Source: an uncultured Bifidobacterium sp. (lineage in GTDB: Bacteria; Actinomycetota; Acidimicrobiia; Acidimicrobiales; Ilumatobacteraceae). Taken from it: DNA of 64,000 nucleotides. Location: the NCBI GenBank assembly GCA_964556145.1, contig CAZKVD010000001.1, positions 8,379 through 72,378 on the forward strand, read 5' to 3'. The notes beneath the pieces were generated by a model. It made no database searches, was not told the origin of the DNA, and saw only the letters and a program-made list of their open reading frames with translations. The position numbers were made by a program, and so were the translations under genes. Shown here piece by piece: positions 36,522-56,543 of this stretch (position 1 is the stretch's first letter; each line of letters starts with the position of its first letter).

Positions 36522-38510
36522 TCAGATTTTCCTTTCCTTGCGGGTCGATCCGTTCGTACGAACATTCAGGAATCCGATCAATGCGCCGACAACGAGGAGC
36601 GCCAGCGCCGCGAAGAGAAAGCCGACGTTGAAGCGAGGACCGGTATTCGGAAGTTCGTCGGGAAAGAGCACGAGGAAGTCACTCTCAACCGGCGCCGTCG
36701 TCGTGGTCGGTTGCAGAAGTGCCTGAAACTCGGGTGCTGCTGTTGTCGACGGTGATGTCGTTGTCGTCGTGGACGGAGGGGCGGTTGTTGTCACGACGTT
36801 TGCGACAAAAGTGGTCGTTGGGCCCGTCGTTGTCGATGGTGCGACGGTCGTTGGCGCCACGGTTGTCGGCGCCACGGTCGTTGGCGTAACGGTTGTGGTC
36901 GGTGCGATTGTCGTCGTCGTCGTGGTTGTTGTCGTTGTGGTTGTTGACGTGGTCGTCGAAGTTGGTGGAACCACGACGGCGGTGATGGTTGCCGTGCGCA
37001 GTGGCGAGGTGACCCCGGCACCTGACGCGGTTGCTTTGTTCGTCACGGTCGCACTGTCGAGGTCGGCCGACGTGACCGCATAATTGGCAGTGCACGACAC
37101 CGACGAACCGGGCGCAAGCGTGGTCGTGGCGGCTCCACACGGGAAGGGCGTGCCGTTGGCGATGTGGTCGTCGGTGACCGTGAACTGTGCAGGGCCAAGC
37201 GGGACGTCGCCGTTGTTGGTGATCGTGTAGGTGTAGACGATGGCGTCGTCAACTTCATCAAAAGTGGTCGGTGATGCCGTTTTTTCGAGATCGATCGACA
37301 TCGGTCCGGTCACCGTGTTGCGGAAGATGCAGGTGACGATTTCTCCTTCGCGGACGTCGATCTCCACCCCACCGTTGATCGGAGTCTGACGGCCTCCATT
37401 CGGGTCTGCCACCGTGCAGTCCGCCGAAGACAATTGAAAGTCGTTACCGGTCATTTCGGTGATCGTGTGCATGCCGAAGTTGACGATGTTGCCGAACGTC
37501 TTCGTGTTCGCGGTCGTCCCGTCATCGACCAGTGAAAAGTTCGTCAACGGTGCGGGCGCTGCGACGAAGTCGTAAGCGGCGGATCCTTCGATCGAGGCCT
37601 CTTTGATGACGGTGATCGAAGCCCCGTATACGACAGCTTCACTCGACAATGACCGATCCTGGTTTCCTGCGCCGCAGTTCGTTGTATCGGAACAGCCGAG
37701 ACTGATGATTCGCATGTGGTAGGGCGAGCCCGGTAGTGACACGGCCGACTTGCCCGTTCCCCAGTCGCGTCGTTCGGCAATGTGGCCACCCCACGCCAGG
37801 ACGACGGTGTCGGAACTGGCGGTGACATAGACAGTGATGCTGGTCTGGCTGTTGTCCGCGTACGAACCAGTCCTTGTGTGCGGCGATGGGTTGGCTGCGA
37901 TCGTGCACGTGGCGGTTGCGCAGAGATCACCGTCGTTGTTCACCACCTGGCCTGCGGTGGGAAACGAGGCCCCGAATGCAGAGAACATGCGATCCGACAC
38001 CTCCGTGACGCCGGCTGCCGCAACATTCGGATCGAGCGGTATCGCCAACTCCGCCGTTGCGCCGCAGGTCGATGGCGTGCACGGATCCGCGGTCTGGACA
38101 CTCCGATCGAATGACGTGAGGTAATCGATCGCATGCTTGCCCGATTGCGTCGTATCCCATTCGATCGTGATGGCATACGTTGCCCCGACGGCCAGATCTG
38201 TCATCACGGCGCGGTACGCAACGCTTTCACCTTCGAGATAGCGCGAGTTGTTCGCGTTCAGATTCCCGTGCTGCCACTGTTCCGGGTGCGCGGTGTCGCA
38301 GGTTGTCCCCAGATTCGCGCACTGATCAAGCGTGATTCCGGCTTTTGCCTGTGCCGGTGCGACGATGCCGATCGCCCACGCCCCACTGCCTGCCACAAGA
38401 GCAGCAGCGAGTAACGCAATGAAACGACGTTTGCGTCGCAGGAACGATTCGAGTCGCCGCCTGCCGACGTTGAGTTCGGCCACCGAGCCGATGTCTTCCG
38501 AGGATCCCAT
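36522..38510 (-). CDS. sortase-anchored (LPNTG) cell-surface protein with DUF11-like repeat domain and Thr/Pro-rich stalk
   Basis: ORF 36522..38600, start taken at MGSSEDIG. Signal peptide ...APAQA. C-terminal LPNTG plus a hydrophobic helix plus RTNGSTRKERKI. Confidence 0.85.
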   Translation of the reverse strand: MGSSEDIGSVAELNVGRRRLESFLRRKRRFIALLAAALVAGSGAWAIGIVAPAQAKAGITLDQCANLGTTCDTAHPEQWQHGNLNANNSRYLEGESVAYRAVMTDLAVGATYAITIEWDTTQSGKHAIDYLTSFDRSVQTADPCTPSTCGATAELAIPLDPNVAAAGVTEVSDRMFSAFGASFPTAGQVVNNDGDLCATATCTIAANPSPHTRTGSYADNSQTSITVYVTASSDTVVLAWGGHIAERRDWGTGKSAVSLPGSPYHMRIISLGCSDTTNCGAGNQDRSLSSEAVVYGASITVIKEASIEGSAAYDFVAAPAPLTNFSLVDDGTTANTKTFGNIVNFGMHTITEMTGNDFQLSSADCTVADPNGGRQTPINGGVEIDVREGEIVTCIFRNTVTGPMSIDLEKTASPTTFDEVDDAIVYTYTITNNGDVPLGPAQFTVTDDHIANGTPFPCGAATTTLAPGSSVSCTANYAVTSADLDSATVTNKATASGAGVTSPLRTATITAVVVPPTSTTTSTTTTTTTTTTTTIAPTTTVTPTTVAPTTVAPTTVAPSTTTGPTTTFVANVVTTTAPPSTTTTTSPSTTAAPEFQALLQPTTTTAPVESDFLVLFPDELPNTGPRFNVGFLFAALALLVVGALIGFLNVRTNGSTRKERKI
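36838..36955. repeat. 15-bp tandem units (PTTVA) followed by a poly-Thr coding run inside the LPXTG gene
   Basis: Read directly from the sequence: GGCGCCACGGT(C/T)GT(T/C) units, then a GTN-rich run encoding T12 on the minus strand. Confidence 0.8.
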
Positions 38511-38642
38511 GTCAGCCTCCCGTTGAGCGTTGGAAACTGATCGGGGTCCGGGATCAGGATCGGCAACGTAACGGCGTGCTGCAGTCGAGCGACACGACAA
38601 TCCTCACATCCCTTTCGGGGGAGTCATTCGTACAGTCGAAAC

Positions 38643-39698: not shown

Positions 39699-39808
39699 GG
39701 GAATTCAACAGGGTACGGATGTCTCCTGACAGGACGTTTGGCGTGGTCTTTACTTCTCTTCGAAGACGTATCCGTCCGGAGGGGACGGTCGAAAGACAGG
39801 AGAATTCA

Positions 39809-40477
39809 ATGATCAGGACACTGTTGTGTGACGACCATGCGCTGGTGCGCGAATCGCTGCCGTTGGCGCTGGAGGCCGAGGGGGACTTCAAGGTTGTGGG
39901 GGCGGTGGCCACCGTGGCAGATGCCCTCGAGGTTGCCCGACGTGAGGACCTTGATGTTGCCCTCATCGACCTGCATCTTGCCGGCGAGAGCGGACTGTCA
40001 CTTGTCGAGGCCTTGCGCGGTACGTTGCCCGACTGTCGGCCGGTGATTCTGTCGGGGTTTCCTTCCGACGACTTGATCTACGAAGCCGGCAGGCTCGGCG
40101 CGTTCGACGTGATCGACAAGCAGTCGTCCACCCGCGACATTGCCTCACGCGTGCGCACCGCTGTCGGCGGGCGTCGAATGCTCGACGACTTCACCCGTCG
40201 TGCTGCAAAGGATCGTCTCGTGGGCGAAGGCCTGTTGACCTACAAGGAACTCGGGGCGACTGACCGGGAGATTCTCGCCTTGATTGCACAGGGCATGACC
40301 GACAAGCAGATCAGCCAGCGCGTGTTTCTGAGCGCCCAGACCGTTCGCAACCGCATCTCGCGACTGCTCGGTCTTCTTGGTCGCGACAACCGCACACAGC
40401 TCGCATTGATGGTGACGGCGATGGATCCGTTCGTTGAAGGTGTCTTGGTGCCTGCGTCCGCGACTGTTGGGAAGTAG
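39809..40477 (+). CDS. NarL/LuxR-type response regulator (REC + HTH)
   Basis: ORF 39719..40477, start taken at MIRTLLCDDH after AGGAGA. Contains the acidic pocket DD, a phospho-acceptor context ALIDLHL, and the LuxR HTH LTDREILALIAQGMTDKQISQRVFLSAQTVRN. Confidence 0.85.
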   Translation: MIRTLLCDDHALVRESLPLALEAEGDFKVVGAVATVADALEVARREDLDVALIDLHLAGESGLSLVEALRGTLPDCRPVILSGFPSDDLIYEAGRLGAFDVIDKQSSTRDIASRVRTAVGGRRMLDDFTRRAAKDRLVGEGLLTYKELGATDREILALIAQGMTDKQISQRVFLSAQTVRNRISRLLGLLGRDNRTQLALMVTAMDPFVEGVLVPASATVGK

Positions 40478-40743: not shown

Positions 40744-42307
40744 GTGTCAGCTCGGGTTCGTCGGCCAGCAGGCGCTGCAGTCGGAACTTGTTCTCGAAGA
40801 GCGCAACGAGCGCGTCGTCGCCACGCTTCAGGATTCTGATACCGCCGATTGCCTGAAGGCGGGGCACGCTTGCCTTGTCGGTCAAGCGAATGGCTTGGTA
40901 CACGGTCGGGCGGACCTCGATCGGTGCATTGAACTCGCCGGCCAAGCGATGCGCAAACACCTCCAACTGCAGGGCGCCGACCGCTGCGAGGATCGGATCG
41001 CTGTCACCCAGATCGGGGTCGCGCAGCACCTGAACAACACCTTCCTCGTCGAGTTGTGCGAGGCCCTTGCGGAACTGCTTGAAACGCCCCGAGTCGAGGG
41101 GACGTGCGGTGGCAAAGACTTCGGGCTCGAATCGTGGCACGCCGGGGAATTCGACGGCATCGTCGGCATAGAGAGTGTCGCCGATGCGCAGGTCGTTGGC
41201 GTTGATGAGGCCGATGATGTCGCCCGGATAGGCGGTCTCGATCGTTTCGCGGTCGTTCCCGAACGCCGTCGTTGCATACTTCGTGGCAACGAGTCGTTTC
41301 GATCTGATGCACGTGGCGTCCATTCCGCGTTCGAAAACGCCCGAGCACACCCGTGCAAATGCGAGTCGGTCACGGTGATTCGGGTCCATGTTCGCCTGGA
41401 TCTTGAAAACGAACGCCGAGAATGGCGAGTCGAGTTCGCGGGGCACGTCGTTCACGTCGGTACGCGGCGCGGGAGCCGGTGCAAGATCAACGACTGCGTC
41501 AAGGAGCATGCGAACACCGAAGTTGGTGAGTGCCGAGCCGACGAACACGGGCGTCGTGGATCCGGCCAGGAATGACTCGATGTCGACATTGGCACCGATT
41601 GCGTCGAGCAGAGAGCAGCCGTCGATGGCCGCGGTCCAAGCGGCACCCTCGGCTGCTGCCGCCTCGTCGGCCGGAACGACCTCTTCGGGGGAAAGTTCGG
41701 CACCGTGGGCAGTACGAACGAAACGGACGAAGTTGCCCGTGCGCCTGTCGATGACGCCCCGGAAATCGCCGGGGATGCCGACCGGCCAGGTGACCGGCGT
41801 CGGCTTCAGGCCGATCTGTTCTTCAACTTCGTCGAGCAGCTCGAGGGGATCGCGCCCCGGCCGGTCGTACTTGTTGAAAAACGTGATGACGGGCAGGTTG
41901 CGTGAACGACACACCTGGAACAACTTGAGCGTCTGGGACTCGATGCCCTTTGCCGTGTCGAGCACCATGACGACCGAGTCGACGGCGGCGAGTACGCGGT
42001 AGGTGTCTTCGGAGAAGTCGCGGTGGCCGGGAGTGTCGAGCAGGTTGAACGTGTGGCCGCGGTAGGGAAACTGCAGAACGGCCGATGAAATCGAGATACC
42101 TCGTTGCTTTTCGAGATCCATCCAGTCGGAGGTGGCCGCCTTGCGTCCACCGCGAGCCCGAACGGCCCCGGCCTCTTGCACCGCGCCTGCGTACAAGAGA
42201 AATTTTTCGGTCAACGTCGTTTTGCCCGCATCGGGGTGGGAGATGATTGCGAACGTACGCCGGTTGGCTGCCTGTGCCGACACGTCGGACTTTTGCTGGG
42301 GGTTCAT
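40718..42307 (-). CDS. prfC: peptide chain release factor 3 (translational GTPase)
   Basis: ORF 40718..42379, start taken at MNPQQKSD. Motifs RRTFAIISHPDAGKTTLTEKFLL, DTPGHRDF and NKYDR. Confidence 0.9.
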   Translation of the reverse strand: MNPQQKSDVSAQAANRRTFAIISHPDAGKTTLTEKFLLYAGAVQEAGAVRARGGRKAATSDWMDLEKQRGISISSAVLQFPYRGHTFNLLDTPGHRDFSEDTYRVLAAVDSVVMVLDTAKGIESQTLKLFQVCRSRNLPVITFFNKYDRPGRDPLELLDEVEEQIGLKPTPVTWPVGIPGDFRGVIDRRTGNFVRFVRTAHGAELSPEEVVPADEAAAAEGAAWTAAIDGCSLLDAIGANVDIESFLAGSTTPVFVGSALTNFGVRMLLDAVVDLAPAPAPRTDVNDVPRELDSPFSAFVFKIQANMDPNHRDRLAFARVCSGVFERGMDATCIRSKRLVATKYATTAFGNDRETIETAYPGDIIGLINANDLRIGDTLYADDAVEFPGVPRFEPEVFATARPLDSGRFKQFRKGLAQLDEEGVVQVLRDPDLGDSDPILAAVGALQLEVFAHRLAGEFNAPIEVRPTVYQAIRLTDKASVPRLQAIGGIRILKRGDDALVALFENKFRLQRLLADEPELTLTPILAGQ

Positions 42308-42371
42308 CGGACTACAGACGCTACCGACCGACGTAGTGTGACGCGGGGCAACGACGGGAAATGGGGAAGCA

Positions 42372-43454
42372 GTGAACAACGACGGAGTCTTTCAGCGGAT
42401 CGAGTTTTCCCATGGTCCGGCCATGGCGAACCGGCTGATGCTGGCCCCGCTGACGAACCAGCAGAGCCACTCCGACGGCACGCTGTCGGACGATGAGCAT
42501 CGTTGGCTCACGATGCGCGCCCTCGGCGGATTTGGTCTCACCATGACGTGTGCCGCGTCGGTGCAGTTCGCCGGAATCGGCTTCGCGGGACAACTCGGTG
42601 TTCACGACGATGCCCACGTGCCCGGCCTCACACGCTTGGCATGCGACATCAAGATGGCCGGCAGCGTCGCCATCGTGCAACTGCACCATGCAGGAAACCG
42701 CTCGCCACGTGAACTCACGGGCACCGATCCGCTGTGTCCGTCCGACGATCCGGAAACCGGTGCGCGTGCGATGACGAACGATGAAGTGCACGAGATGATC
42801 GGTGCCTTCGTTGCAGCAGCACGCAGGACGCAAAGTGCCGGGTTCGACGGGGTTGAACTGCACGGTGCGCACGGGTACCTGCTGTGCCAGTTCCTGTCGG
42901 CCGAACTGAACCATCGCGGTGACGAGTTCGGCGGGACGTTGGAGAATCGGTCGAGGCCACTGTTCTCGATCATCGATGGCATTCGCCGCGAATGCGGCGA
43001 TGACTTCCATGTCGGCGTTCGTTTGTCGCCGGAACGCTTCGGAATGCGGATCGACGAAATCATCGACGTCTACCGCCGTCTCGTCTCTGACGGGCAGGTC
43101 GACATGATCGACATGTCCCTGTGGGATTGGTCGAAGAATGCCAACGAAGAAGCACACGCCCACAGCCGGCTGATCGACATCTTCGCCGGAATCGAACGTC
43201 GCAACGTCAAATTGGCGGTTGCCGGAAAGCTGTACACCGCGGCTGCCGTCAGGGCCGTCATCGAATCGGGTGCCGACATCGCGGCAATCGGCCGGGCAGC
43301 GATCACGAACCACGACTTTCCGCACCGCATGCGTGACGACGAGGACTTCTCGATGCGTGCGCTCCCCGTAAGCGCCCAAATCCTGCGCGACGAGGGCTTG
43401 TCCGACACGTTCGTCGGCTACATGCGGAACTGGAAGGGTTTCGTCGCGGACTGA
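42372..43454 (+). CDS. NADH:flavin oxidoreductase (Old Yellow Enzyme family)
   Basis: 360 aa with motifs RLMLAPLTN, IVQLHHAG and GVELHGAHGYLLCQFLS. Confidence 0.85.
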   Translation: MNNDGVFQRIEFSHGPAMANRLMLAPLTNQQSHSDGTLSDDEHRWLTMRALGGFGLTMTCAASVQFAGIGFAGQLGVHDDAHVPGLTRLACDIKMAGSVAIVQLHHAGNRSPRELTGTDPLCPSDDPETGARAMTNDEVHEMIGAFVAAARRTQSAGFDGVELHGAHGYLLCQFLSAELNHRGDEFGGTLENRSRPLFSIIDGIRRECGDDFHVGVRLSPERFGMRIDEIIDVYRRLVSDGQVDMIDMSLWDWSKNANEEAHAHSRLIDIFAGIERRNVKLAVAGKLYTAAAVRAVIESGADIAAIGRAAITNHDFPHRMRDDEDFSMRALPVSAQILRDEGLSDTFVGYMRNWKGFVAD

Positions 43455-43474
43455 CCAGGGCTACGGTTTGCGCG

Positions 43475-44314
43475 GTGGAGGTGAAGCGACTGACCGGTGT
43501 GTTCGGCGCCGAGGTGGTTGTCGACGACGTACGTCGCCTTGGTACGACCGAAGTCGATGAACTTCGGCGCCACGTCTGTGACCATGAAGTCGTCGTCCTG
43601 CGCGGACAAACGTTGTCGGTCGCCGAGCAGGTGGAATTGTCGCGTCGGCTCGGACCGGCCGGCCCGGTGCCGTTCATCGAAGCGAGCCCCGACCATCCCG
43701 AAGTCATCAAGGTCGTCAAAGAGGCCGGCGACGGTGATGCCTTCAATTTCGGCGGGGCATGGCACAGCGACTTCAGCTTCCAGCCCGAGCCCCCGGCATT
43801 CACCCTCCTGTACGCGATCGACATCCCGCCATTCGGTGGCGACACCTTGTGGGCCTCGATGACGGCGGCATGGCGCGGTCTCTCGCCCGAAAGGCAGGTC
43901 GAACTGTCCCGGTTGGTCGCCGTTCACACCGCGCGCGATGCGTACTCACGAAAGATGCAACCGCTCCATTCCGGACTGTCGGGGATGAACATTGTCTGCG
44001 ACGACACTGCCAATGACGCCGAAGCGCATCCCCTGGTGGTGACTCACCCCGAGACCGGAAGAAAGTCCCTCTTTTTCAATCGGGCTTATGTTCGGGACTT
44101 GGTCGACGTCGACGACAAAGAGGCGGCGAGGCTCCTCGAGTGGCTGCACGCACACACGACCGACGCGCGGTTCACTCTGCGCCATCGTTGGTCGGTGGGG
44201 GATCTCGTCATCTGGGACAACCGGTCGACTCAGCACTATGCGTTGAATGACTACGCCGGATTTCGTCGTGAGTTGCATCGCACGACGGTCGCCGGCGATC
44301 GCCCACGGAGTTGA
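43475..44314 (+). CDS. TauD/TfdA-family Fe(II)/2-oxoglutarate dioxygenase
   Basis: HxD motif WHSDFSF. Distal His context VIWDNRSTQHYA. Confidence 0.85.
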   Translation: MEVKRLTGVFGAEVVVDDVRRLGTTEVDELRRHVCDHEVVVLRGQTLSVAEQVELSRRLGPAGPVPFIEASPDHPEVIKVVKEAGDGDAFNFGGAWHSDFSFQPEPPAFTLLYAIDIPPFGGDTLWASMTAAWRGLSPERQVELSRLVAVHTARDAYSRKMQPLHSGLSGMNIVCDDTANDAEAHPLVVTHPETGRKSLFFNRAYVRDLVDVDDKEAARLLEWLHAHTTDARFTLRHRWSVGDLVIWDNRSTQHYALNDYAGFRRELHRTTVAGDRPRS

Positions 44315-44320
44315 TCAACG

Positions 44321-45178
44321 ATGTTCCTGGCAATCGCAAGCACCGGTCGCACGGCAACGTCATACGTTGCCGAAGCACTGAACCATGTCGACGGGATTGC
44401 CGCGCTTCACGAGGGTCACTTGGGGAACGACGCAGGCTCCGATGTGCTTCCGATGGTGAATCTCGACAACTTCCAGTGCTTCAAGAGTCCTGAACGGGCG
44501 AAAATGGTCGTTTCCGAAAAGCGGAATCCCGAACTTCTCGAAGGCGTGTGTCGAGGCCTCGGTGTCGAGATGCTCGTCGACGTTGCCTATTACAACTCCG
44601 TTCTCTTGGCCGAGATGCTTGAACAGGTGCCGACGTCTCACGGTGCGATCATCATCAGGGACTGCGAGTCCTTTGTCCGGTCGGCAACGTGGTTCACGGG
44701 TACCGATCCGATGCCCGTCGGTTGGCCCGACCCGGCGAAGGCTCTCGATTCCCGTGAACGGTTCATTGGCCTCGGTCGACTTCGCCCATTCGATGGCGAT
44801 GATCTGCGCGAGTGGGCGGGTTGGGGTGCTGTCGAACGCAACATCTGGTTGTGGCGCGCAACAAACACCGTGTTGTGCAACACCTGGCAACGCTTTCCCG
44901 ATCGCGTGCACTTTCTCGATTTCAAGGAACTCATCAGCGATCCGACGGGCATTCTGCAGGGTCTGTTGGCTACCATCGGTCGTCCCCTCGTTGATGACCG
45001 CTTTGGCCAGCTCGAGAGGGCGCTCGTCGAGGCGCACCAGCGTCAAAACGAGCGGCGCGGCGGTTATCAGGTCGGTGCATCCGACACCTGGACCGCCGAG
45101 CAACGTCGTCTCTTGTCCGAGGCAACGAAGGAAATCGCGAGTCGAGTGGAGAAGTTGCGTGGCCGACGGGCTGGTTGA
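44321..45178 (+). CDS. hypothetical protein, sulfotransferase-like (P-loop-type STGRTATSY and RDCESFVRS)
   Basis: 285 aa. The resemblance to the 5'-PSB and 3'-PB motifs of sulfotransferases is by eye only. Confidence 0.4.
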   Translation: MFLAIASTGRTATSYVAEALNHVDGIAALHEGHLGNDAGSDVLPMVNLDNFQCFKSPERAKMVVSEKRNPELLEGVCRGLGVEMLVDVAYYNSVLLAEMLEQVPTSHGAIIIRDCESFVRSATWFTGTDPMPVGWPDPAKALDSRERFIGLGRLRPFDGDDLREWAGWGAVERNIWLWRATNTVLCNTWQRFPDRVHFLDFKELISDPTGILQGLLATIGRPLVDDRFGQLERALVEAHQRQNERRGGYQVGASDTWTAEQRRLLSEATKEIASRVEKLRGRRAG

Positions 45179-45185
45179 CCAAATA

Positions 45186-45407
45186 GTGGACATCATCAAG
45201 TCGGTGCTGTCGGCGCGGGGAGCCACCGACGTCGCGGTCTCGATCGACTCGGGAATGGGCAACCCTCCGGCGTGGGACTCGCTTGCCTTCGTCGAGATTT
45301 TCACGACCGTTTCCACGCGGCTCGGAATCGATGTCAGCGACGACGATGCAATCCACTTCATGACGGTGCGCGAAATCGTCGACTTCGTCGCCGATCAAGC
45401 CGGCTGA
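45186..45407 (+). CDS. acyl/peptidyl carrier protein (DltC-like)
   Basis: Tail of ORF 44562..45407. GTG 45186 lies 8 nt after the preceding stop. 73 aa with the phosphopantetheine-Ser context AWDSLAFVEI. Confidence 0.75.
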   Translation: MDIIKSVLSARGATDVAVSIDSGMGNPPAWDSLAFVEIFTTVSTRLGIDVSDDDAIHFMTVREIVDFVADQAG

Positions 45408-45415
45408 GGAGTCCC

Positions 45416-46933
45416 GTGTCGATTTTGCGTCGGGTCTTGTCCGATCGTTGGCGCGTACCAGTCGATGCCCCGGCTTTCGAGGGGCCCTTTGGTGCCGACA
45501 AAAAGACGGTCCTCAGCGAAACAGACGTCGTGTCACGACTCGCAGCGTTGCGTTGCGCGCTCATCGATGCCGGAGTCGGCAAGGGCTCCCGCGTGGGTGT
45601 CCTCAGCAATCACAGAGTCGAGACTTACCTTGCAGTGCTGGCCGCGGTATCGGTTGGTGCGACCTTCGTACCCCTCAACCCGAAATTTCCACTCGACAGG
45701 CTTCGCACAATTCTCGACCTCGCACAACCGAACGTGATTCTGGGCGACCCCGCGACGCTCGACGTACATCGCGAAATCGCCGACGGCATTCCGCTGATCG
45801 ACGTGTCAACGGTTCGGCCGATGGCCGAAGAGGTGGGGACGTGGAACGCTGCACTCGATTCAAGTGATGTCGCACCCGGTGACACCGCCTACATCATGTT
45901 CACTTCGGGTTCCACGGGTACGCCGAAGGGTGTGCCGATCTCGTACGGCAACCTGTCGGCGTACATCGACGGCGCAACGGCTCTTCTCGAAATTCCGGAG
46001 GGGTCTCGATTCTCACAGTTTTTCGACCTCAGCTTCGACTTGTCGATGCACGACATCTTCGTGTCGACGCGGCTGCGCGGCACTCTGGTGGCCCCGTCTC
46101 AAGTCGATGTGATGATGCCGGGTGCATACGTTGTGCGCGAGCGGATCGATGCATGGTTCTCCGTTCCGCTGTTGGGCGCGCAGTTGGGTGGGGCGACACG
46201 CAAGGCGGACTTTCCCGGGCTCCGATCGATGCTCTTTTGCGGCGAGGCACTGCCGATGGAAACCGTCATCGCGTGTCGGGGTTGGCTCGCCGACGGTGGT
46301 CGGATGTGGAATCTCTATGGCCCCACCGAAGCGACGATCGCCTTCACGGCCGCCGATGTCACCGATTCGACCCGAAGCGAGGGCAATGCGTCAATCGGCA
46401 CGGCCTTCGGCAAAAACTTCACCGCCTTGTTGAATGCCGACGGCACGGTCGACCTCGACCCCGACATCGACTCAGAAGGTGAACTGTTGTTGGGTGGCCC
46501 CCAGGTGTTCGCCGGGTACTCCACCGACGCGCCGTCGCCGTTCGTGCGACATGCGGAGACGTCCTACTACCGCAGCGGAGATTTGGTGCGTATCGACACC
46601 GAGGGTGTGTATTTCCGGGGTCGTGTCGACTCTCAGGTGAAGTTCCGCGGCTACCGAATCGAACTCGGGGAGATCGAAACCGTGGCCCGTCGTACATTCG
46701 GCCTGAAGACACTGGCAGTTGTGGTGTCCGGAGAAGGTGCGGGTGCTCGTTTGACGATGTACCACCTTGCAGCCGAGAACAAAGCGGACGCAGCGCTCGA
46801 TCTTCGTCGGCTCGCCGAGACGCTGCCCGCGTACATGATTCCGTCCGAGTCCGTCGGCCTCGAGGTCATGCCAACCAATCAGAACGGCAAGATCGACCGT
46901 CGAGCGCTGACAGTGCTGGCATCGGGCGGTTGA
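45416..46933 (+). CDS. stand-alone adenylate-forming enzyme (DltA-like carrier-protein ligase)
   Basis: ORF 45272..46933, GTG 45416 after GAGGAG. Motifs YIMFTSGSTGTPKGV, FDLSFDLS, NLYGPTEATI, YRSGDL, KFRGYRIELGEIE and NGKIDR. Confidence 0.85.
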   Translation: MSILRRVLSDRWRVPVDAPAFEGPFGADKKTVLSETDVVSRLAALRCALIDAGVGKGSRVGVLSNHRVETYLAVLAAVSVGATFVPLNPKFPLDRLRTILDLAQPNVILGDPATLDVHREIADGIPLIDVSTVRPMAEEVGTWNAALDSSDVAPGDTAYIMFTSGSTGTPKGVPISYGNLSAYIDGATALLEIPEGSRFSQFFDLSFDLSMHDIFVSTRLRGTLVAPSQVDVMMPGAYVVRERIDAWFSVPLLGAQLGGATRKADFPGLRSMLFCGEALPMETVIACRGWLADGGRMWNLYGPTEATIAFTAADVTDSTRSEGNASIGTAFGKNFTALLNADGTVDLDPDIDSEGELLLGGPQVFAGYSTDAPSPFVRHAETSYYRSGDLVRIDTEGVYFRGRVDSQVKFRGYRIELGEIETVARRTFGLKTLAVVVSGEGAGARLTMYHLAAENKADAALDLRRLAETLPAYMIPSESVGLEVMPTNQNGKIDRRALTVLASGG

Positions 46934-46940
46934 TCAACCG

Positions 46941-47990
46941 ATGACCCCATTGGCCCATGTCGTGACGATTCTGGCGGTTCTGCCGGTCGCTCATTTTCTC
47001 TCGCCCAGGGTCCGGCTTGCATTCGTCACGTTCGCCGGCGCGGTCTTCATGTTGATGCTCGCTCCAGCCGGTTTCTGGGTGGTTCTCGTCAGCATCGTCG
47101 AAGGCCTGATTCTCGAGCGCCTTCTGCGCAACCTTCCGAAGAAGTCGGCCGTCAGGCAATACGTGCCGTACCTGCTTCTCGTCAACGTGTTCACCACCGA
47201 TCTTGCCGGCGGCGTCTTTTCCGGTCAGCGGTTCGTGACTGCGGGTGTGGCATTCGCCGTTGTTCGCGTGTTCATGACAACCAAGCAATTGTTGGGTGCC
47301 AAGTCCACCACGGGCACGCAACGAGTCATGTCGCTCGCGGCCGGCGGATGGTTTCTGCCGGCGATTGTCGTGGGCCCGGTCTTTTCCGGCACGACTCTGT
47401 GGGACCAAACACGAAAAGACGCAGTGGAATCAGTGACGTCGCCGACCGAATTCCTCTATCGCAAGTTGTTCGGCGGTTGGATTCTGGCGGCTCTGTTGGC
47501 GGATTGGCTGGCGCACGAGGCAGGGGGTACGCATCTCGACAGGTGGACCGCTCCGTTCGTTCTTCTTGCTTTGTTCGGACACCTGTTCACCGCGTTCTGG
47601 GGACAGTCCCTCATTGCCGAATCGGGTGCCGCCCTTGCCGGATTCGACATTCCTGCAAACTTCAATCGTCCTTGGCTCGCGGTCGACATTCGTGATTTCT
47701 GGAATCGCTGGCACATGTCGATGGCGCGATTCGTCATGCAGTACTTCTTTCTGCCGCTCAACTTGCGTGGCGTGAACGCCCGTCTGGCGACCGCGGTGGC
47801 TTTCCTCTTCATGGGTCTGTGGCACGAGGTTCGTCCCGGCTATGTGATCTGGGGCTTGGCTCACGGTTGTCTCATGGCCTTCGCACCGAAGTCGGCCGAC
47901 ATCACGATCCGAACCGGGCGCATCATCAACCGTGTTGCAACGATCTCGTCGGTCGTTCTTCTCTCGTACGTGGCGAATTATGCGTTCTGA
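46941..47990 (+). CDS. membrane-bound O-acyltransferase (MBOAT; DltB/AlgI-like)
   Basis: 349 aa polytopic protein. FWNRWHMSMARF and GLWHE carry the conserved MBOAT His residues. Confidence 0.8.
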   Translation: MTPLAHVVTILAVLPVAHFLSPRVRLAFVTFAGAVFMLMLAPAGFWVVLVSIVEGLILERLLRNLPKKSAVRQYVPYLLLVNVFTTDLAGGVFSGQRFVTAGVAFAVVRVFMTTKQLLGAKSTTGTQRVMSLAAGGWFLPAIVVGPVFSGTTLWDQTRKDAVESVTSPTEFLYRKLFGGWILAALLADWLAHEAGGTHLDRWTAPFVLLALFGHLFTAFWGQSLIAESGAALAGFDIPANFNRPWLAVDIRDFWNRWHMSMARFVMQYFFLPLNLRGVNARLATAVAFLFMGLWHEVRPGYVIWGLAHGCLMAFAPKSADITIRTGRIINRVATISSVVLLSYVANYAF

Positions 47991-49050
47991 CCGTCGCAGC
48001 TTCCGTCGACACGTGGTTCGTCGCGTGGTGCTTCCACTGATCGCGCTGGCGATGGTTTTCGTTCCTTCCTACAGTTGGCTGCGTGCCGGTCGTGTGCCGG
48101 GCAAGTACGTCAACCGGTGTCAGGCTGACGTCTACGAGAGTGACGCGCCCGCGGCCGACCTGTTGTTGATCGGGGCAAGCCGAACCGGATTCGGCATCGA
48201 CGACGACCTCGTGGATCTGCGATTGTCGGCAGTGCAAAGCCATCGAACCGACAAGATCGTGTTGCTCGGCAACGCCGACTCCGATTCGAACATGGCGCTT
48301 CGGACGTACCTGCGTGAGCGTGGCGTCCCCGAAAGCCTCGGCATCGAGGTCCTCATCACCCGCGTGGCGGGGGAGTCAATGGCGCCGCGCTACGGAGCGT
48401 CGCTGACCAACCGCAGTTACGCGCTGTTCGGCGCACGGGCCTACTCGGGCTACCTCGGATCCCTCGTCGACAACGAGGTCTTGGGCTGGCGTGACGTCTA
48501 CGCGCGTTCCTACTTCCCGTCGCCGTTCAAGTTTTTCTTCGAACACCTGCAGGTCGGTTTCGACAATGCCTTGCGCGAAATCGACAGGGCGATCGACCCT
48601 CTCGGTGAATGCGACCGTACGGTTTTGCCGGCGTGGGGGCCGGTCGCCGCAGCCCCGTTCACCGAGACGACGCCACGTCCGTCCGACAGGAAGATCGCAC
48701 AGTTGAACAAGGAAGTTGCGCGCTACGTGAAGGTCAACCTCGACAGCCGGCGCGCATCGGGTGAACTTGCGGTCATGCGCGACATGGTTGACGTTGCGCG
48801 AAGCGCGGGCGTGAAGAACTTGTTCTTCTACTACTTCCCATCGTTCGGCGAGACTTCGGACGTGATGGATCTCGGTCGATTGGGAGAATTGATTCCGGGC
48901 GTCGACATGTTCGACGCGCGGCCGATCATCAGCGATCCGAACAAGCCCGGGCTCGACCTGCAGTACAAGGATCGGGCGCATCTCACCAAGTACGCCGCTT
49001 ACGAGGTGACGACGGACCTCGTGGATTTCTTGAAGGAGCTTGGCAAGTGA
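47980..49050 (+). CDS. N-terminally anchored DltD/SGNH-like acyl-transfer protein
   Basis: ORF 47932..49050. ATG 47980 overlaps the MBOAT stop. One TM helix, then LLIGASRTG (candidate Ser block) and a C-terminal DRAH (DxxH block). Confidence 0.55.
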   Translation: MRSDRRSFRRHVVRRVVLPLIALAMVFVPSYSWLRAGRVPGKYVNRCQADVYESDAPAADLLLIGASRTGFGIDDDLVDLRLSAVQSHRTDKIVLLGNADSDSNMALRTYLRERGVPESLGIEVLITRVAGESMAPRYGASLTNRSYALFGARAYSGYLGSLVDNEVLGWRDVYARSYFPSPFKFFFEHLQVGFDNALREIDRAIDPLGECDRTVLPAWGPVAAAPFTETTPRPSDRKIAQLNKEVARYVKVNLDSRRASGELAVMRDMVDVARSAGVKNLFFYYFPSFGETSDVMDLGRLGELIPGVDMFDARPIISDPNKPGLDLQYKDRAHLTKYAAYEVTTDLVDFLKELGK

Positions 49051-49178
49051 GGAAATTCCTCGTGGCGCACCCGCGAACCCGTGCCGTTGCAGCGTGGGTG
49101 GGGTTGATCCTTGCCGCCGCATTGCTGCTGCGCTGGGTCGAGCCGGCCGTTTTCGAATCCCCCTACAACAACTTCTGA
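49047..49178 (+). CDS. 43-aa single-pass micro-protein, DltX-like (C-terminal ...FESPYNNF)
   Basis: My own translation: VRKFLVAHPRTRAVAAWVGLILAAALLLRWVEPAVFESPYNNF*. The GTG overlaps the upstream stop (GTGA). It falls below the ORF-track size cut-off. Confidence 0.55.
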   Translation: MRKFLVAHPRTRAVAAWVGLILAAALLLRWVEPAVFESPYNNF

Positions 49179-49195
49179 ACGTAGGCTGTCCAGCC

Positions 49196-50368
49196 ATGGG
49201 AAACCCGTGGTTTGAAACAGTTGCCGTTGCACAGCGCAGGGCACAACGGCGGCTGCCGAAATCCGTGTACGGCGCAATCGTCGGGGGATCGGAAAAGGGC
49301 CTCACGTTCAACGACAACCTGAGCGCGTTCGACGAACTCGGGTTTGCGCCTCACATCGCGGGTCTTCACGCCGGTCGAGATCAATCGATCACGGTCATGG
49401 GCCAGCAGGTGTCGATGCCGGTCGTCATTTCGCCGACCGGTGTGCAGGCCGTTCATCCCGATGGTGAGGTGGCCGTTGCGCGGGCTGCAGCCAACCGGGG
49501 AGTCGCGATGGGGCTCAGCTCGTTTGCCAGCAAGTCGATCGAAGACGTCACCGCGGTCAACAACCAGGTTCTCTTTCAGATGTACTGGTCGGGCGGTCGC
49601 GACACGATGGTGCAGCGACTCGAACGAGCAAGAGCAGCCGGAGCCAAGGGCATCATCCTCACCCTCGACTGGACGTTTTCGAACGGTCGGGATTGGGGCA
49701 GCCCGTGGATTCCCGAAAAGGTCGGCCTGAAGGAAATGATCAAGCTCGCACCACAGGGTCTCTCCCGGCCCAAGTGGTTGTGGATGTATGCGAAGACGCT
49801 CGGGCTGCCCGACCTCACGACCCCGAACATGGCCGCTCCCGGTGAAAAGCCACCGACGTTCTTCGGTGCGTATTTCGAGTGGATGCAAAGTCCGCCACCG
49901 AGTTGGGACGACATTGCCTGGTTGCGTTCGCAATGGGATGGCCCATTCATGGTGAAGGGTGTCTGTCGGGTCGACGATGCAAAGCGCGTTGTCGACGCAG
50001 GTGCCACTGCTTTGTCGGTGTCGAATCACGGCGGAAACAATCTCGACGGCACGCCCGCCCCGATTCGGTCGTTGCCGGCGATCGCCGACGCGGTTGGTGA
50101 CCAGATCGAAATCCTGCTCGACGGCGGTGTGCGGCGTGGTAGTGACGTCGTGAAGTGTCTTGCGCTCGGCGCGCGGGCCGTCATGATCGGACGCGCCTAC
50201 CTGTGGGGCTTGTCTGCGAATGGCCAAGCAGGTGTCGAGAACGTCCTGGACATCCTTCGCGGGGGCATCGACTCTGCGTTGCTGGGCCTTGGCAAGTCGC
50301 ACGTCAGCGAACTCAATCGCGACGACATCGTGATTCCCGACGGATTCACACGACAACTCGGTGTCTGA
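49196..50368 (+). CDS. FMN-dependent alpha-hydroxy-acid oxidase/dehydrogenase (LldD/lactate oxidase family)
   Basis: ORF 49040..50368, start taken at MGNPWFETV. Motifs SNHGGNNLDG and DGGVRRGSDVVKCLALGA. Confidence 0.85.
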   Translation: MGNPWFETVAVAQRRAQRRLPKSVYGAIVGGSEKGLTFNDNLSAFDELGFAPHIAGLHAGRDQSITVMGQQVSMPVVISPTGVQAVHPDGEVAVARAAANRGVAMGLSSFASKSIEDVTAVNNQVLFQMYWSGGRDTMVQRLERARAAGAKGIILTLDWTFSNGRDWGSPWIPEKVGLKEMIKLAPQGLSRPKWLWMYAKTLGLPDLTTPNMAAPGEKPPTFFGAYFEWMQSPPPSWDDIAWLRSQWDGPFMVKGVCRVDDAKRVVDAGATALSVSNHGGNNLDGTPAPIRSLPAIADAVGDQIEILLDGGVRRGSDVVKCLALGARAVMIGRAYLWGLSANGQAGVENVLDILRGGIDSALLGLGKSHVSELNRDDIVIPDGFTRQLGV

Positions 50369-55296: not shown

Positions 55297-55890
55297 ATGG
55301 ACACATTCAGAAAAATCTCAATCACGTTTATCGCATCCGTCGCAGTTCTTGGAACGGCCGGTGGTGTCGATGCAGCCAAGAAGTCGGGCGCAATGTGCGC
55401 GAATCGCGCGGCGACAATCACTTCGTCGAATGCAACCATTTACGGGACCGAATCCAGCGACGTGATCGTCGTGACGGGAGGAGGAAAACACACGATTCAG
55501 GCACTCGGTGGTGACGACATCATCTGTGGGTCGAGTGGCACCGACATTGTCTACGGCGGTCACGGCAACGATCGAATCGACGGCAGGGGCGGCAACGACG
55601 ATCTCGACGGCGATCTTGGCGACGACATCATTCTCGGCAACAACGGCAAGGATTCAATCAGCGGCGGCGATGGCCGCGACTATCTCTTTGGTCTGAACGA
55701 CAACGACGACATCACCGGTGACTCCGGCGACGACGTGATCTTTGGGGGAAACGGTAGTGATGACCTTGCTGGGAGCGCGGGTGTCGACTTGATTGTCGGC
55801 GGGGAAGGTGACGACACCATCATCGAAGAAGTCGGTGTCGACATCGTGTTCGATCCCGAGCCGCGCGGGTTGGACTTCAGGTCGAAGTGA
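55297..55890 (+). CDS. secreted calcium-binding beta-roll (RTX-type GGxGxD repeat) protein
   Basis: N-terminal signal peptide (ASVAVLGTAGGVDAA). At least 8 nonapeptide repeats such as GGHGNDRID, GRGGNDDLD and GGDGRDYLF. Confidence 0.8.
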   Translation: MDTFRKISITFIASVAVLGTAGGVDAAKKSGAMCANRAATITSSNATIYGTESSDVIVVTGGGKHTIQALGGDDIICGSSGTDIVYGGHGNDRIDGRGGNDDLDGDLGDDIILGNNGKDSISGGDGRDYLFGLNDNDDITGDSGDDVIFGGNGSDDLAGSAGVDLIVGGEGDDTIIEEVGVDIVFDPEPRGLDFRSK

Positions 55891-56543
55891 GGAAGGTCGC
55901 GCTCCTACTTGCCGTCGTCGTCCTGCCGGCACCGCTTCTTGTGGGTGCCGGCGGGACGGTGCGGTCTCCCGCCAAACTTCCGAAGATCTATTGCGGCGGG
56001 CGTTTGGCAACCGTCGCGTCGAATGCGGGAACGATCTACGGAACCGAGGGTGACGACGTGATCGTTGCCGTTGGTTCGAATCCGCACACGATTCGTGCAC
56101 TCGCGGGCAACGACATCGTCTGCGGAGGTTCGGGAGTCGATGCGATTTACGGCGGTGATGGGCGAGACCGAATCGACGGGCGCCAGGGCGACGATCGAAT
56201 CGAGGGTGGCCCGGGTGACGACGTTGTCTACGGCAACACAGGTAGCGACACGCTCGTTGGGGGCGACGGCCGCGATTACATCTTCGGTTTGAACGGCAAC
56301 GATGTTGCATCGGGCAACACGGGCGACGACGTCATCCTCGGGGGTCAGGGCAACGACCTTCTCGCCGGTGGTGCCGGCACCGACACCATCTACGGGGGCC
56401 CGGGACGCGACAACGTGATTGCCGACGATCCGCAGGACTTTGCATTCGACGACGAGCCCGTCGGGCTTGGCGTTGAGATCGGTGGTGACGTTCGTGTCAG
56501 GACATCATCTGGCGATCGAGAATCGAATACACCCGCTTGGTGA
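55887..56543 (+). CDS. secreted calcium-binding beta-roll (RTX-type repeat) protein, paralog of the preceding gene
   Basis: The GTG overlaps the upstream stop. Has a signal peptide and the same domain layout (TIYGTEGDDVIVA..., GGDGRDRIDG..., GGDGRDYIFG...). Confidence 0.8.
   Translation: MRKVALLLAVVVLPAPLLVGAGGTVRSPAKLPKIYCGGRLATVASNAGTIYGTEGDDVIVAVGSNPHTIRALAGNDIVCGGSGVDAIYGGDGRDRIDGRQGDDRIEGGPGDDVVYGNTGSDTLVGGDGRDYIFGLNGNDVASGNTGDDVILGGQGNDLLAGGAGTDTIYGGPGRDNVIADDPQDFAFDDEPVGLGVEIGGDVRVRTSSGDRESNTPAW

Follow-up and report, generated by a model that had tools for sequence, protein, structure and literature searches.

A divergent Dlt-like gene module with a sulfotransferase-fold member in a nine-gene run of an uncultured Ilumatobacteraceae actinobacterium

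The nine-gene run and its Dlt-like core

The window analyzed here, a stretch of 64,000 nucleotides (nt) from an uncultured member of the Ilumatobacteraceae (assembly GCA_964556145.1, contig CAZKVD010000001.1, positions 8,379 to 72,378), carries nine plus-strand open reading frames (ORFs) that span positions 42372-50368. In gene order, they encode an OYE-family flavin reductase, a TauD-family dioxygenase, a sulfotransferase-fold protein, a carrier protein, an adenylation enzyme, an MBOAT, an SGNH protein, a microprotein and the flavoprotein MftD, and with refined starts they are separated by 20, 6, 7, 8, 7, -11, -4 and 17 nt. The first-pass annotation had described nine packed same-strand genes with a flp/tad locus 132 nt downstream. 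Both statements hold: the ORFs are present with computed gaps of -11 to 20 nt, a flp-like ORF begins 132 nt 3' of mftD, and the Tad genes after it are confirmed by Pfam. The gene families it had named stand for eight of the genes, the last one being more exactly MftD (TIGR03966) than a generic 2-hydroxy-acid oxidase. It had furthermore read the run as one operon, with oxidoreductases of tailoring type placed around an acylation relay. Here we put forward that six of them, at 44321-49178, probably constitute the functional unit, a Dlt-like module for envelope aminoacylation, and that the three redox genes are most likely its neighbours.

The six-gene stretch opens with a cytoplasmic sulfotransferase-fold protein of 285 residues (44321-45178), assigned on its predicted fold and a weak Sulfotransfer_3 Pfam match. 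It is followed by a carrier protein of 73 residues with a DSL phosphopantetheine serine (45186-45407; PF00550, 21.1 bits, cut-off 20.8). ACP families in NCBIfam match the carrier as well, all below cut-off, and its serine aligns with the ACP serine; DltC is not found among the best 60 of its 73 PDB matches. The next gene (45416-46933) encodes a stand-alone amino-acid adenylation enzyme of 505 residues that would take a DltA-like role. It matches the AMP-binding family at 198 bits and stays below cut-off both for the amino-acid adenylation domain TIGR01733 (273 bits, cut-off 317) and for the DltA models TIGR01734 and NF003417 (207-211 bits, cut-offs 560 and 476).

The fourth gene (46941-47990; PF03062, 72 bits) encodes a DltB-like MBOAT, the only solved sequence relatives of which are DltB entries (6bug and 8jem, E 1e-13) with the motifs WNRWH and WH aligned. 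All 12 sequences compared have H258 and H295, and the score against the DltB equivalog TIGR04091 is 84 bits with a cut-off of 375. At 349 residues the protein is short and without an acyl-shuttle tail of its own. Its C-terminus carries an invariant Tyr/Phe-rich stretch, SYVANYAF (with an extra K in two lineages), that does not fit the FXYXXF pattern of DltX.

An 11-nt overlap connects the MBOAT gene with that for a membrane-anchored SGNH protein of 356 residues (47980-49050), which has no Pfam or NCBIfam hit and is predicted to be DltD-like from its fold. The start is the ATG at 47980 and not the first ORF start at 47932, as none of 12 aligned homologues begins earlier and 11 of the 12 begin there. 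The family is small, with 48 hits in a set of 5.8 billion proteins and, among 1.84 billion, 74 representatives at E <= 0.001, 15 of these at E <= 1e-30; 12 members that were scanned have no Pfam match over cut-off. The serine of the GxSR motif and a C-terminal histidine are invariant in 21 distant relatives. The AlphaFold2 (AF2) model, with a predicted local distance difference test score (pLDDT) of 88.5, has an N-terminal helix at residues 5-34, and the top five Foldseek matches are DltD structures at E 4.6e-5 to 8e-4, with TM scores of only 0.36-0.42.

The last member is a DltX-like microprotein of 43 residues (49047-49178), the GTG start of which overlaps the SGNH stop. It was recognized from its translation and has no Pfam or NCBIfam family hit. 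A basic N-terminus is followed by one hydrophobic helix and the C-terminal tail FESPYNNF. The gene is kept in 15 of 15 loci (the window and 14 others, two of them identical in sequence) with the invariant tail FESPY..F, and 13 sequences all have Y40 and F43. Judged from this conservation, the micro-ORF is a real gene. DltX is described as an intermediate between DltB and DltD that holds D-alanine on the tyrosine of its FXYXXF tail (PMC12148441). By analogy, Tyr40 is the candidate acyl-accepting residue of the microprotein.

Distribution of the relay and its redox neighbours

The source assembly of the window comprises 2.0 Mb and is 81% complete. It was compared with genomes of the same uncultured Ilumatobacteraceae genus and with one genome (G368) of another Acidimicrobiia family. 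Gene order was read as far as each contig reaches, in 11 genus loci, five more (including fragments from G003, G004, G009 and G021) and five metagenome loci. The SGNH protein was found in 12 of 61 genomes searched, namely in the window's own genome and in 11 of 24 others of the genus; no hit came from 36 genomes of the family and order that belong to other genera. By identity to the RF3 of the window the genus falls into two groups, one at 85-93% and one at about 80%. In the former, the order is divergent prfC, OYE, TauD, sulfotransferase-like gene, carrier, adenylase, MBOAT, SGNH, micro-ORF, MftD and flp/tad. In the latter, the DNA beside prfC, at five loci, matched none of the other 18 query proteins, and one genome of this group (G022) has unrelated genes there.

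A profile search detected the SGNH family in 3 of 401 genomes of the class, and one of these is G368 from the different family. On a 17.4-kb contig of G368 the same order recurs, with identities of 46% for the sulfotransferase-like protein, 52% for the carrier, 59% for the adenylase, 60% for the MBOAT and 31% for the SGNH protein. An ORF starts on the SGNH stop and encodes a hydrophobic helix before the contig ends. OYE, TauD and MftD have no match on this contig.

Read from these gene orders, the conserved unit is a set of six genes: those for the sulfotransferase-fold protein, the carrier, the adenylase, the DltB-like MBOAT, the DltD-fold SGNH protein and the DltX-like microprotein. The idea that tailoring-type genes belong to the relay is thus borne out for one gene, as the sulfotransferase-like gene lies directly upstream of the carrier gene wherever the contig reaches, G368 included. 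It is not sustained for the three oxidoreductases, which fail to co-vary with the core across the relatives compared, an outcome that the first-pass annotation itself had named as counting against its view. The difference between the sulfotransferase-like gene, which co-varies with the five relay genes, and the oxidoreductases, which do not, follows from a sublineage without TauD, from G368 and from the OYE homologues of a sister clade.

Relay genes are strongly diverged within the genus, with identities of 45-72% for the SGNH protein and 59-77% for the adenylase, whereas RF3 (86-92%) and MftD (89-94%) evolve more slowly. Such divergence, far above that of the neighbours, is what one would expect if a surface trait were subject to diversifying pressure. 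In two genomes relay or neighbouring genes look disrupted, which could reflect decay or assembly errors: in G018 (L026, G018:C160, 4180-5516 and 7792-8728) the adenylase and mftD each align as two segments that leave out about 57 and 75 residues of the query, and in G002 (L025, G002:C108, 5429-6921) the adenylase has a frame change near residue 439.

The TauD/TfdA-family Fe(II)/2-oxoglutarate dioxygenase (43475-44314, plus strand, 279 residues) belongs to its Pfam family (PF02668, 222 bits) and stays below the cut-off of the taurine dioxygenase equivalog (205 bits, cut-off 313). Among solved structures it is closest to (R)-phenoxypropionate dioxygenase (221 bits), with 156 bits for E. coli TauD. 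In G021 (L072) and in the metagenome locus L090, OYE and the sulfotransferase gene adjoin without a TauD gene between them; the sublineage of the genus without TauD consists of G021 and the metagenome loci L090, L091 and L092, and its sulfotransferase-like genes are 54-56% identical to that of the window. In G368, TauD is not next to the relay. The homologues encoded elsewhere in G021, in G368 and in the sister clade are only 34-48% identical. Taken together, TauD is most likely a dispensable, sublineage-specific insert.

The first gene of the co-directional run encodes an OYE-family flavin ene-reductase of 360 residues (42372-43454, plus strand; PF00724, 192 bits). Its nearest solved relatives are generic NADH:flavin oxidoreductases (129 bits), and with 149 bits against a cut-off of 793 it is not the FadH/OYE protein of mycofactocin clusters. 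It adjoins the relay, directly upstream, in all genus loci that reach that far. In four of four relay-free genomes of the sister clade an OYE homologue with 59-63% identity lies at another locus and is the reciprocal best hit; conversely, when four relay-bearing genomes are searched with the sister-clade OYE, only the OYE of the cluster matches at E <= 1e-30. G368 contains no OYE homologue at E <= 1e-30. We therefore regard OYE as most likely a resident gene next to prfC, a neighbour and not a constant member of the relay.

These observations also bear on the possibility that OYE, together with TauD where present, has been recruited as a helper that supplies or recycles the cargo, only MftD being unrelated. 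CurM and olefin-synthase sulfotransferase domains sulfate carrier-bound beta-hydroxyacyl groups, and the fold of the sulfotransferase-like protein is near theirs (Z 13.5-13.7). In an example route, the sulfotransferase would activate the beta-hydroxyl of a carrier-bound serine-type residue, elimination would follow, and OYE would reduce the enoyl thioester. The constant position of OYE in the genus would fit such a role, as would its divergence among genus loci (72-82% identity versus 86-92% for RF3), which is faster than that of RF3 and resembles that of the relay genes. On the other hand, the reciprocal-best homologue in relay-free genomes and the absence of a match in the relay-bearing G368 speak against such a putative helper function, which we consider doubtful.

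The last gene, mftD (49196-50368, plus strand, 390 residues), had been placed in the LldD family, to the models of which it aligns at only 227-251 bits (FMN_dh, 362 bits). Against the MftD equivalog TIGR03966 it scores 698 bits at a cut-off of 470.85, which identifies it as a predicted pre-mycofactocin synthase. MftD is described as converting AHDP into pre-mycofactocin by oxidative deamination (PMC7491314). The gene is present as a single copy in the assembly. Contig C48 of the same genome (G000) carries an mftA ORF with the tail IDGMCGVY (L001 2817-2999, minus strand), mftB and mftC (L001 1399-2896) and mftF (C48 8177-9532), with scores of 619 bits for MftC, 95 bits for MftB and 353 bits for MftF. 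A gene for an NDMA-dependent alcohol dehydrogenase is oriented divergently from them. MftE exceeds its cut-off in none of five genomes, with 131.9-139.3 bits versus 172 in four of them and no match in G000. The mycofactocin genes are dispersed, mftA-mftB-mftC being followed by plsY, a DedA-family gene and then mftF, with mftD on another contig. The window gene resembles MftD of the mycofactocin pathway in passing the equivalog cut-off and in the presence of mftA, mftB, mftC and mftF in the genome; it differs in being separated from mftABC and in closing a run of unrelated genes. Most likely it serves the mycofactocin pathway encoded elsewhere in the genome and not the relay, and it would finish the cofactor made by mftABC(F).

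The distribution of MftD within the genus can be explained along the same lines. MftC is encoded in 25 of 25 genus genomes and MftD in 13 of 25, and a family-model search of five MftD-negative genus genomes did not yield any protein that passes. The mycofactocin FadH/OYE oxidoreductase 2 (TIGR03997) exceeds its cut-off in six of the 25 genomes, where it is encoded beside mftC, and none of the six has MftD; because genomes with this oxidoreductase are without MftD, the distribution of MftD appears to follow the type of mycofactocin pathway. Four further genus genomes have FadH/OYE hits that are cut by contig ends. Within the genus, MftD and a pair of FadH/OYE flavoproteins encoded beside mftC (e.g. 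G011:C32 10582-21494) replace each other, and no genome has both. In G368, a relay-bearing genome, no protein exceeds the MftD cut-off.

In G021 (L029) and in L092, about 2 kb with two opposite-strand GFO/IDH/MocA genes separate the micro-ORF from mftD. Because these genes intervene, mftD cannot be transcribed together with the relay in the sublineage without TauD. The pair (L029 3380-5337, plus strand, and the same in L092) is arranged in tandem and is convergent on the micro-ORF, with the 3' end of the second gene abutting the micro-ORF stop. Two same-strand ORFs between the micro-ORF and mftD in G021 were considered and rejected, since they have no Pfam hit, are unrelated to the SGNH profile and have GFO/IDH/MocA genes in the opposite frames.

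With these results at hand, the first-pass proposal can be assessed that all nine genes form one functional operon, in which OYE, TauD, the sulfotransferase and the FMN oxidase act as tailoring enzymes, before or after loading, on an acyl unit that is a small acid in hydroxylated, oxidised or sulfated form. TauD-family enzymes that hydroxylate carrier-bound amino acids exist. Although this precedent, the tight packing, the gene order conserved in the genus and the shared distribution of MftD and the relay within it would all suit such an operon, the last gene passes the MftD cut-off and its pathway is present in the genome, opposite-strand genes part mftD from the relay in one sublineage, TauD is lacking there and beside the relay in G368, and the adenylase pocket, with its amino-binding Asp kept, is the same with or without the flanking genes. 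We consider the proposal very unlikely. OYE, TauD and mftD may share transcripts with the module and yet not be constant parts of it; co-transcription alone would not make nine genes one pathway. It appears that tight packing alone made three unrelated redox genes resemble tailoring enzymes.

Cargo, the sulfotransferase-fold partner and a possible mechanism

The positions of the adenylase motifs were fixed by alignment to LgrA. On this basis, the A4 motif (FDxS) keeps the Asp that binds the alpha-amino group, and in xxFCGE a Cys stands at the position of the DltA Cys. The pocket motifs FDLS(M/I)HDIF, LFCGEALP and NLYGPTEATIAFT are present in 10 of 10 adenylase orthologues, G368 included, whatever the flanks. 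The pattern of the C-terminal Lys motif is found in nine of the 10, that of G368 not being matched. Because the pocket motifs are constant and the amino-binding Asp is kept, the cargo should be an amino acid, and the same one with or without OYE, TauD and MftD nearby. The numbering of DltA is transferred onto these motifs in part by what we take to be the correspondence, and the window adenylase has His at the 239-equivalent position, where the DltA pocket presumably has Met. The Asp of the DltA pocket is described as binding the amino group, and the Cys as selecting D-alanine by excluding L-alanine (PMC8972799). The pocket argues for a small amino acid and disfavours a hydroxy or oxo acid as cargo. 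Of the modified acid that had been proposed, the hydroxy or oxo form is therefore disfavoured by the alpha-amino Asp and the DltA-type Cys, and a sulfated cargo is conceivable. D-alanine is our leading guess; given the His at the 239-equivalent position, the pocket may also accept another small residue.

The sulfotransferase-like protein matches Sulfotransfer_3 at 18 bits (E 0.0036), below the cut-off of 27. Its AF2 model (pLDDT 93) is more telling: all 50 rows of a VIA-align comparison are sulfotransferases, the best being TPST1 (Z 15.5, root-mean-square deviation 3.8 over 216 residues), with mycobacterial Stf9/Stf1 and the olefin-synthase and CurM domains at Z 13.5-13.9. Foldseek agrees, with 23 matches at E <= 0.001, and so does the language-model Atlas. 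A sequence-profile search of the PDB with the family returned only the sulfotransferase domain of CurM, at a non-significant E of 0.4. Invariant residues include T13, H30, E31, G32, R113 and S121. The invariant pair R113-x7-S121 resembles the 3'-phosphate motif. The P-loop differs from what we take to be the usual sulfotransferase loop. The alignment with TPST2 starts with model residue 1 at chain residue 69, which places the nearly invariant R10 and the invariant E31 on Arg78 and Glu99 by offset only, provided that no indel intervenes. In TPST2, Arg78 and Glu99 are named as catalytic (PMC10951654). An APS kinase gene is present in the genome. The sulfotransferase-like family comprises 167 detectable members, some of which carry names from Pseudomonadota (P0206, P0239); a sample of 400 other Actinomycetota yielded none, and there is no match among plasmids. 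One sequence, P0219, had looked like a fusion of sulfotransferase and carrier; its middle part reads as out-of-frame and Arg-rich, and it was taken as evidence of adjacency only.

The Pfam match below cut-off, the poor result of the PDB profile search and the unusual P-loop bear the possibility that the protein is a structural adaptor, or an enzyme that uses another donor, and that the module carries out plain D-alanylation of an envelope polymer. The fold match is, however, strong and exclusive to sulfotransferases, and the Arg/Glu pair at TPST2 catalytic spacing together with the invariant R-x7-S pair would suit a sulfotransferase proper; we judge this explanation to be quite unlikely.

For the six-gene Dlt-like module as the functional unit, the following sequence of events is proposed. 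As its motifs suggest, the adenylase would activate a small alpha-amino acid, likeliest D-alanine or a close analogue, and load it onto the 73-residue carrier. By analogy, the DltB-like MBOAT would bring the acyl group through the membrane and hand it to Tyr40 in the microprotein's extracytoplasmic tail, from where the membrane-anchored DltD-fold SGNH protein may take it over on its Ser and esterify an envelope polymer or glycolipid. The cytoplasmic sulfotransferase-fold partner, presumed to use 3'-phosphoadenosine-5'-phosphosulfate (PAPS), is linked to the relay by co-variation; most likely it would sulfate either the carrier-bound cargo or the cytoplasmic precursor of the acceptor. A tentative and less likely possibility is O- or N-sulfation of the amino acid while it is tethered to the carrier. 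The sulfated aminoacyl group might then be exported, as an anionic counterpart of D-alanylation, or sulfate might serve as a leaving group that remodels the cargo before export. Leaving-group sulfation is the principle of curacin and olefin synthases. If true, carrier-cargo sulfation would be a cell-surface chemistry not described for any MBOAT-SGNH system.

Several points weigh against the main reading of a six-gene aminoacylation module. In the microprotein tail (S-P-Y-N-N-F), Ser stands in place of the first Phe of FXYXXF in all 13 sequences, and the His in place of the presumed DltA Met, together with scores below the DltA cut-offs, leaves D-alanine unsecured. Plain D-alanine has no hydroxyl to sulfate. 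The spacers that flank TauD (20 and 6 nt) and the one ahead of mftD (17 nt) are so short that co-transcription of all nine genes is likely in this genome. In the genus OYE is always adjacent and MftD is adjacent or within 2 kb. Furthermore, the genus genomes with and without MftD are nearly those with and without the relay; this pattern is one clade split, and functional linkage would produce it as well. Outside the genus the comparison relies on a single lineage, G368, where the contig ends 120 nt past the SGNH gene and the downstream side is unseen.

The module has predicted counterparts for all five roles of the DltX-DltA-DltB-DltC-DltD system of Firmicutes and shares the Asp and Cys of the DltA D-alanine pocket. 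It differs in that its parts score below the curated Dlt cut-offs or have no family hit (SGNH protein, microprotein), in the order C-A-B-D-X, in the tail motif without the first Phe and in the sulfotransferase-fold gene as a fixed extra member. A canonical Firmicutes dltA was not present among the best 60 of 1236 records in a plasmid search. The host is an actinobacterium of the Acidimicrobiia for which we know of no teichoic acid acceptor, again a difference from the Firmicutes systems. To our knowledge, carrier-fed MBOAT-SGNH relays have been established experimentally only as the Dlt pathway of Firmicutes.

In PatA/PatB-type pairs, acyl-CoA-fed MBOATs bear the acyl-shuttle tail themselves; the pairs resemble the module in combining an MBOAT with an SGNH transferase and an acyl-tyrosine shuttle, and differ in being without carrier, adenylase and microprotein and in having the motif at the MBOAT's C-terminus (PMC12148441). 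In the window, the MBOAT is short and the motif is found on a separate protein of 43 residues.

The CurM and olefin-synthase domains and the tyrosylprotein sulfotransferases share the PAPS-sulfotransferase fold with the window protein (Z 13.5-15.5), and the carrier-bound substrates of the former, which we take as given, would fit a gene located 7 nt upstream of the carrier gene. Unlike these proteins, that of the window is stand-alone, only 10-16% identical and without a thioesterase partner, and its activity is predicted. We know of no described Dlt or Pat system with a dedicated sulfotransferase-type partner, and neither such a combination nor a Dlt-like system in Actinobacteria was found described in the full-text literature, subscription journals not being covered. 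On sequence grounds, the new point is a sulfotransferase-type protein as the constant sixth member of a divergent, complete Dlt-like relay. Such a complete but very divergent relay would be at work in abundant freshwater actinobacteria. If its partner indeed modifies cargo or acceptor, this would amount to a new envelope decoration and provide a handle on the surface chemistry of uncultured Acidimicrobiia.

Boundary elements and flanking genes

A divergent region of 64 nt (42308-42371) separates prfC, which encodes RF3 on the minus strand with its ATG at 42307, from the OYE gene. It contains conserved TANNNT-type elements on both strands, located about 9-10 nt before the prfC start and, in most relatives, also before the OYE start, and the motif gaacgctaccgac..tagtgtg is conserved in nine of 13 loci compared. 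The TANNNT elements are candidate actinobacterial -10 boxes, in which case the leaders would be short or absent. In most relatives, a conserved TAGTGT precedes the ATG start of OYE by 9 nt; the window has CAA in place of this ATG, and its ORF begins with a GTG that lies 27 nt downstream. A scan for promoters and terminators gave one promoter-like and 11 terminator-like sites, which is within the range of shuffled sequences and uninformative.

At the other end, the 17-nt spacer before mftD (49179-49195, plus strand) contains a conserved TAGGCT, as seen from the comparison of loci. In 12 of 14 loci, TAGGCT or TAGGAT precedes the ATG of mftD by 6-8 nt, and the two loci without TauD have AAGGA in its place. 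The element could be an internal -10 box or, equally, a weak ribosome-binding site.

Downstream of the tad genes, two adjoining small proteins with RTX calcium-binding repeats are encoded at 55297-56543. Upstream of the run, on the minus strand (36522-38600), lies the gene for a probable surface protein of 692 residues, which combines DUF7507 with prealbumin-fold domains of SpaA type. This gene comes after those for a family-less protein of 351 residues and a LuxR-type response regulator (39719-40477), both of which are syntenic in the genus.

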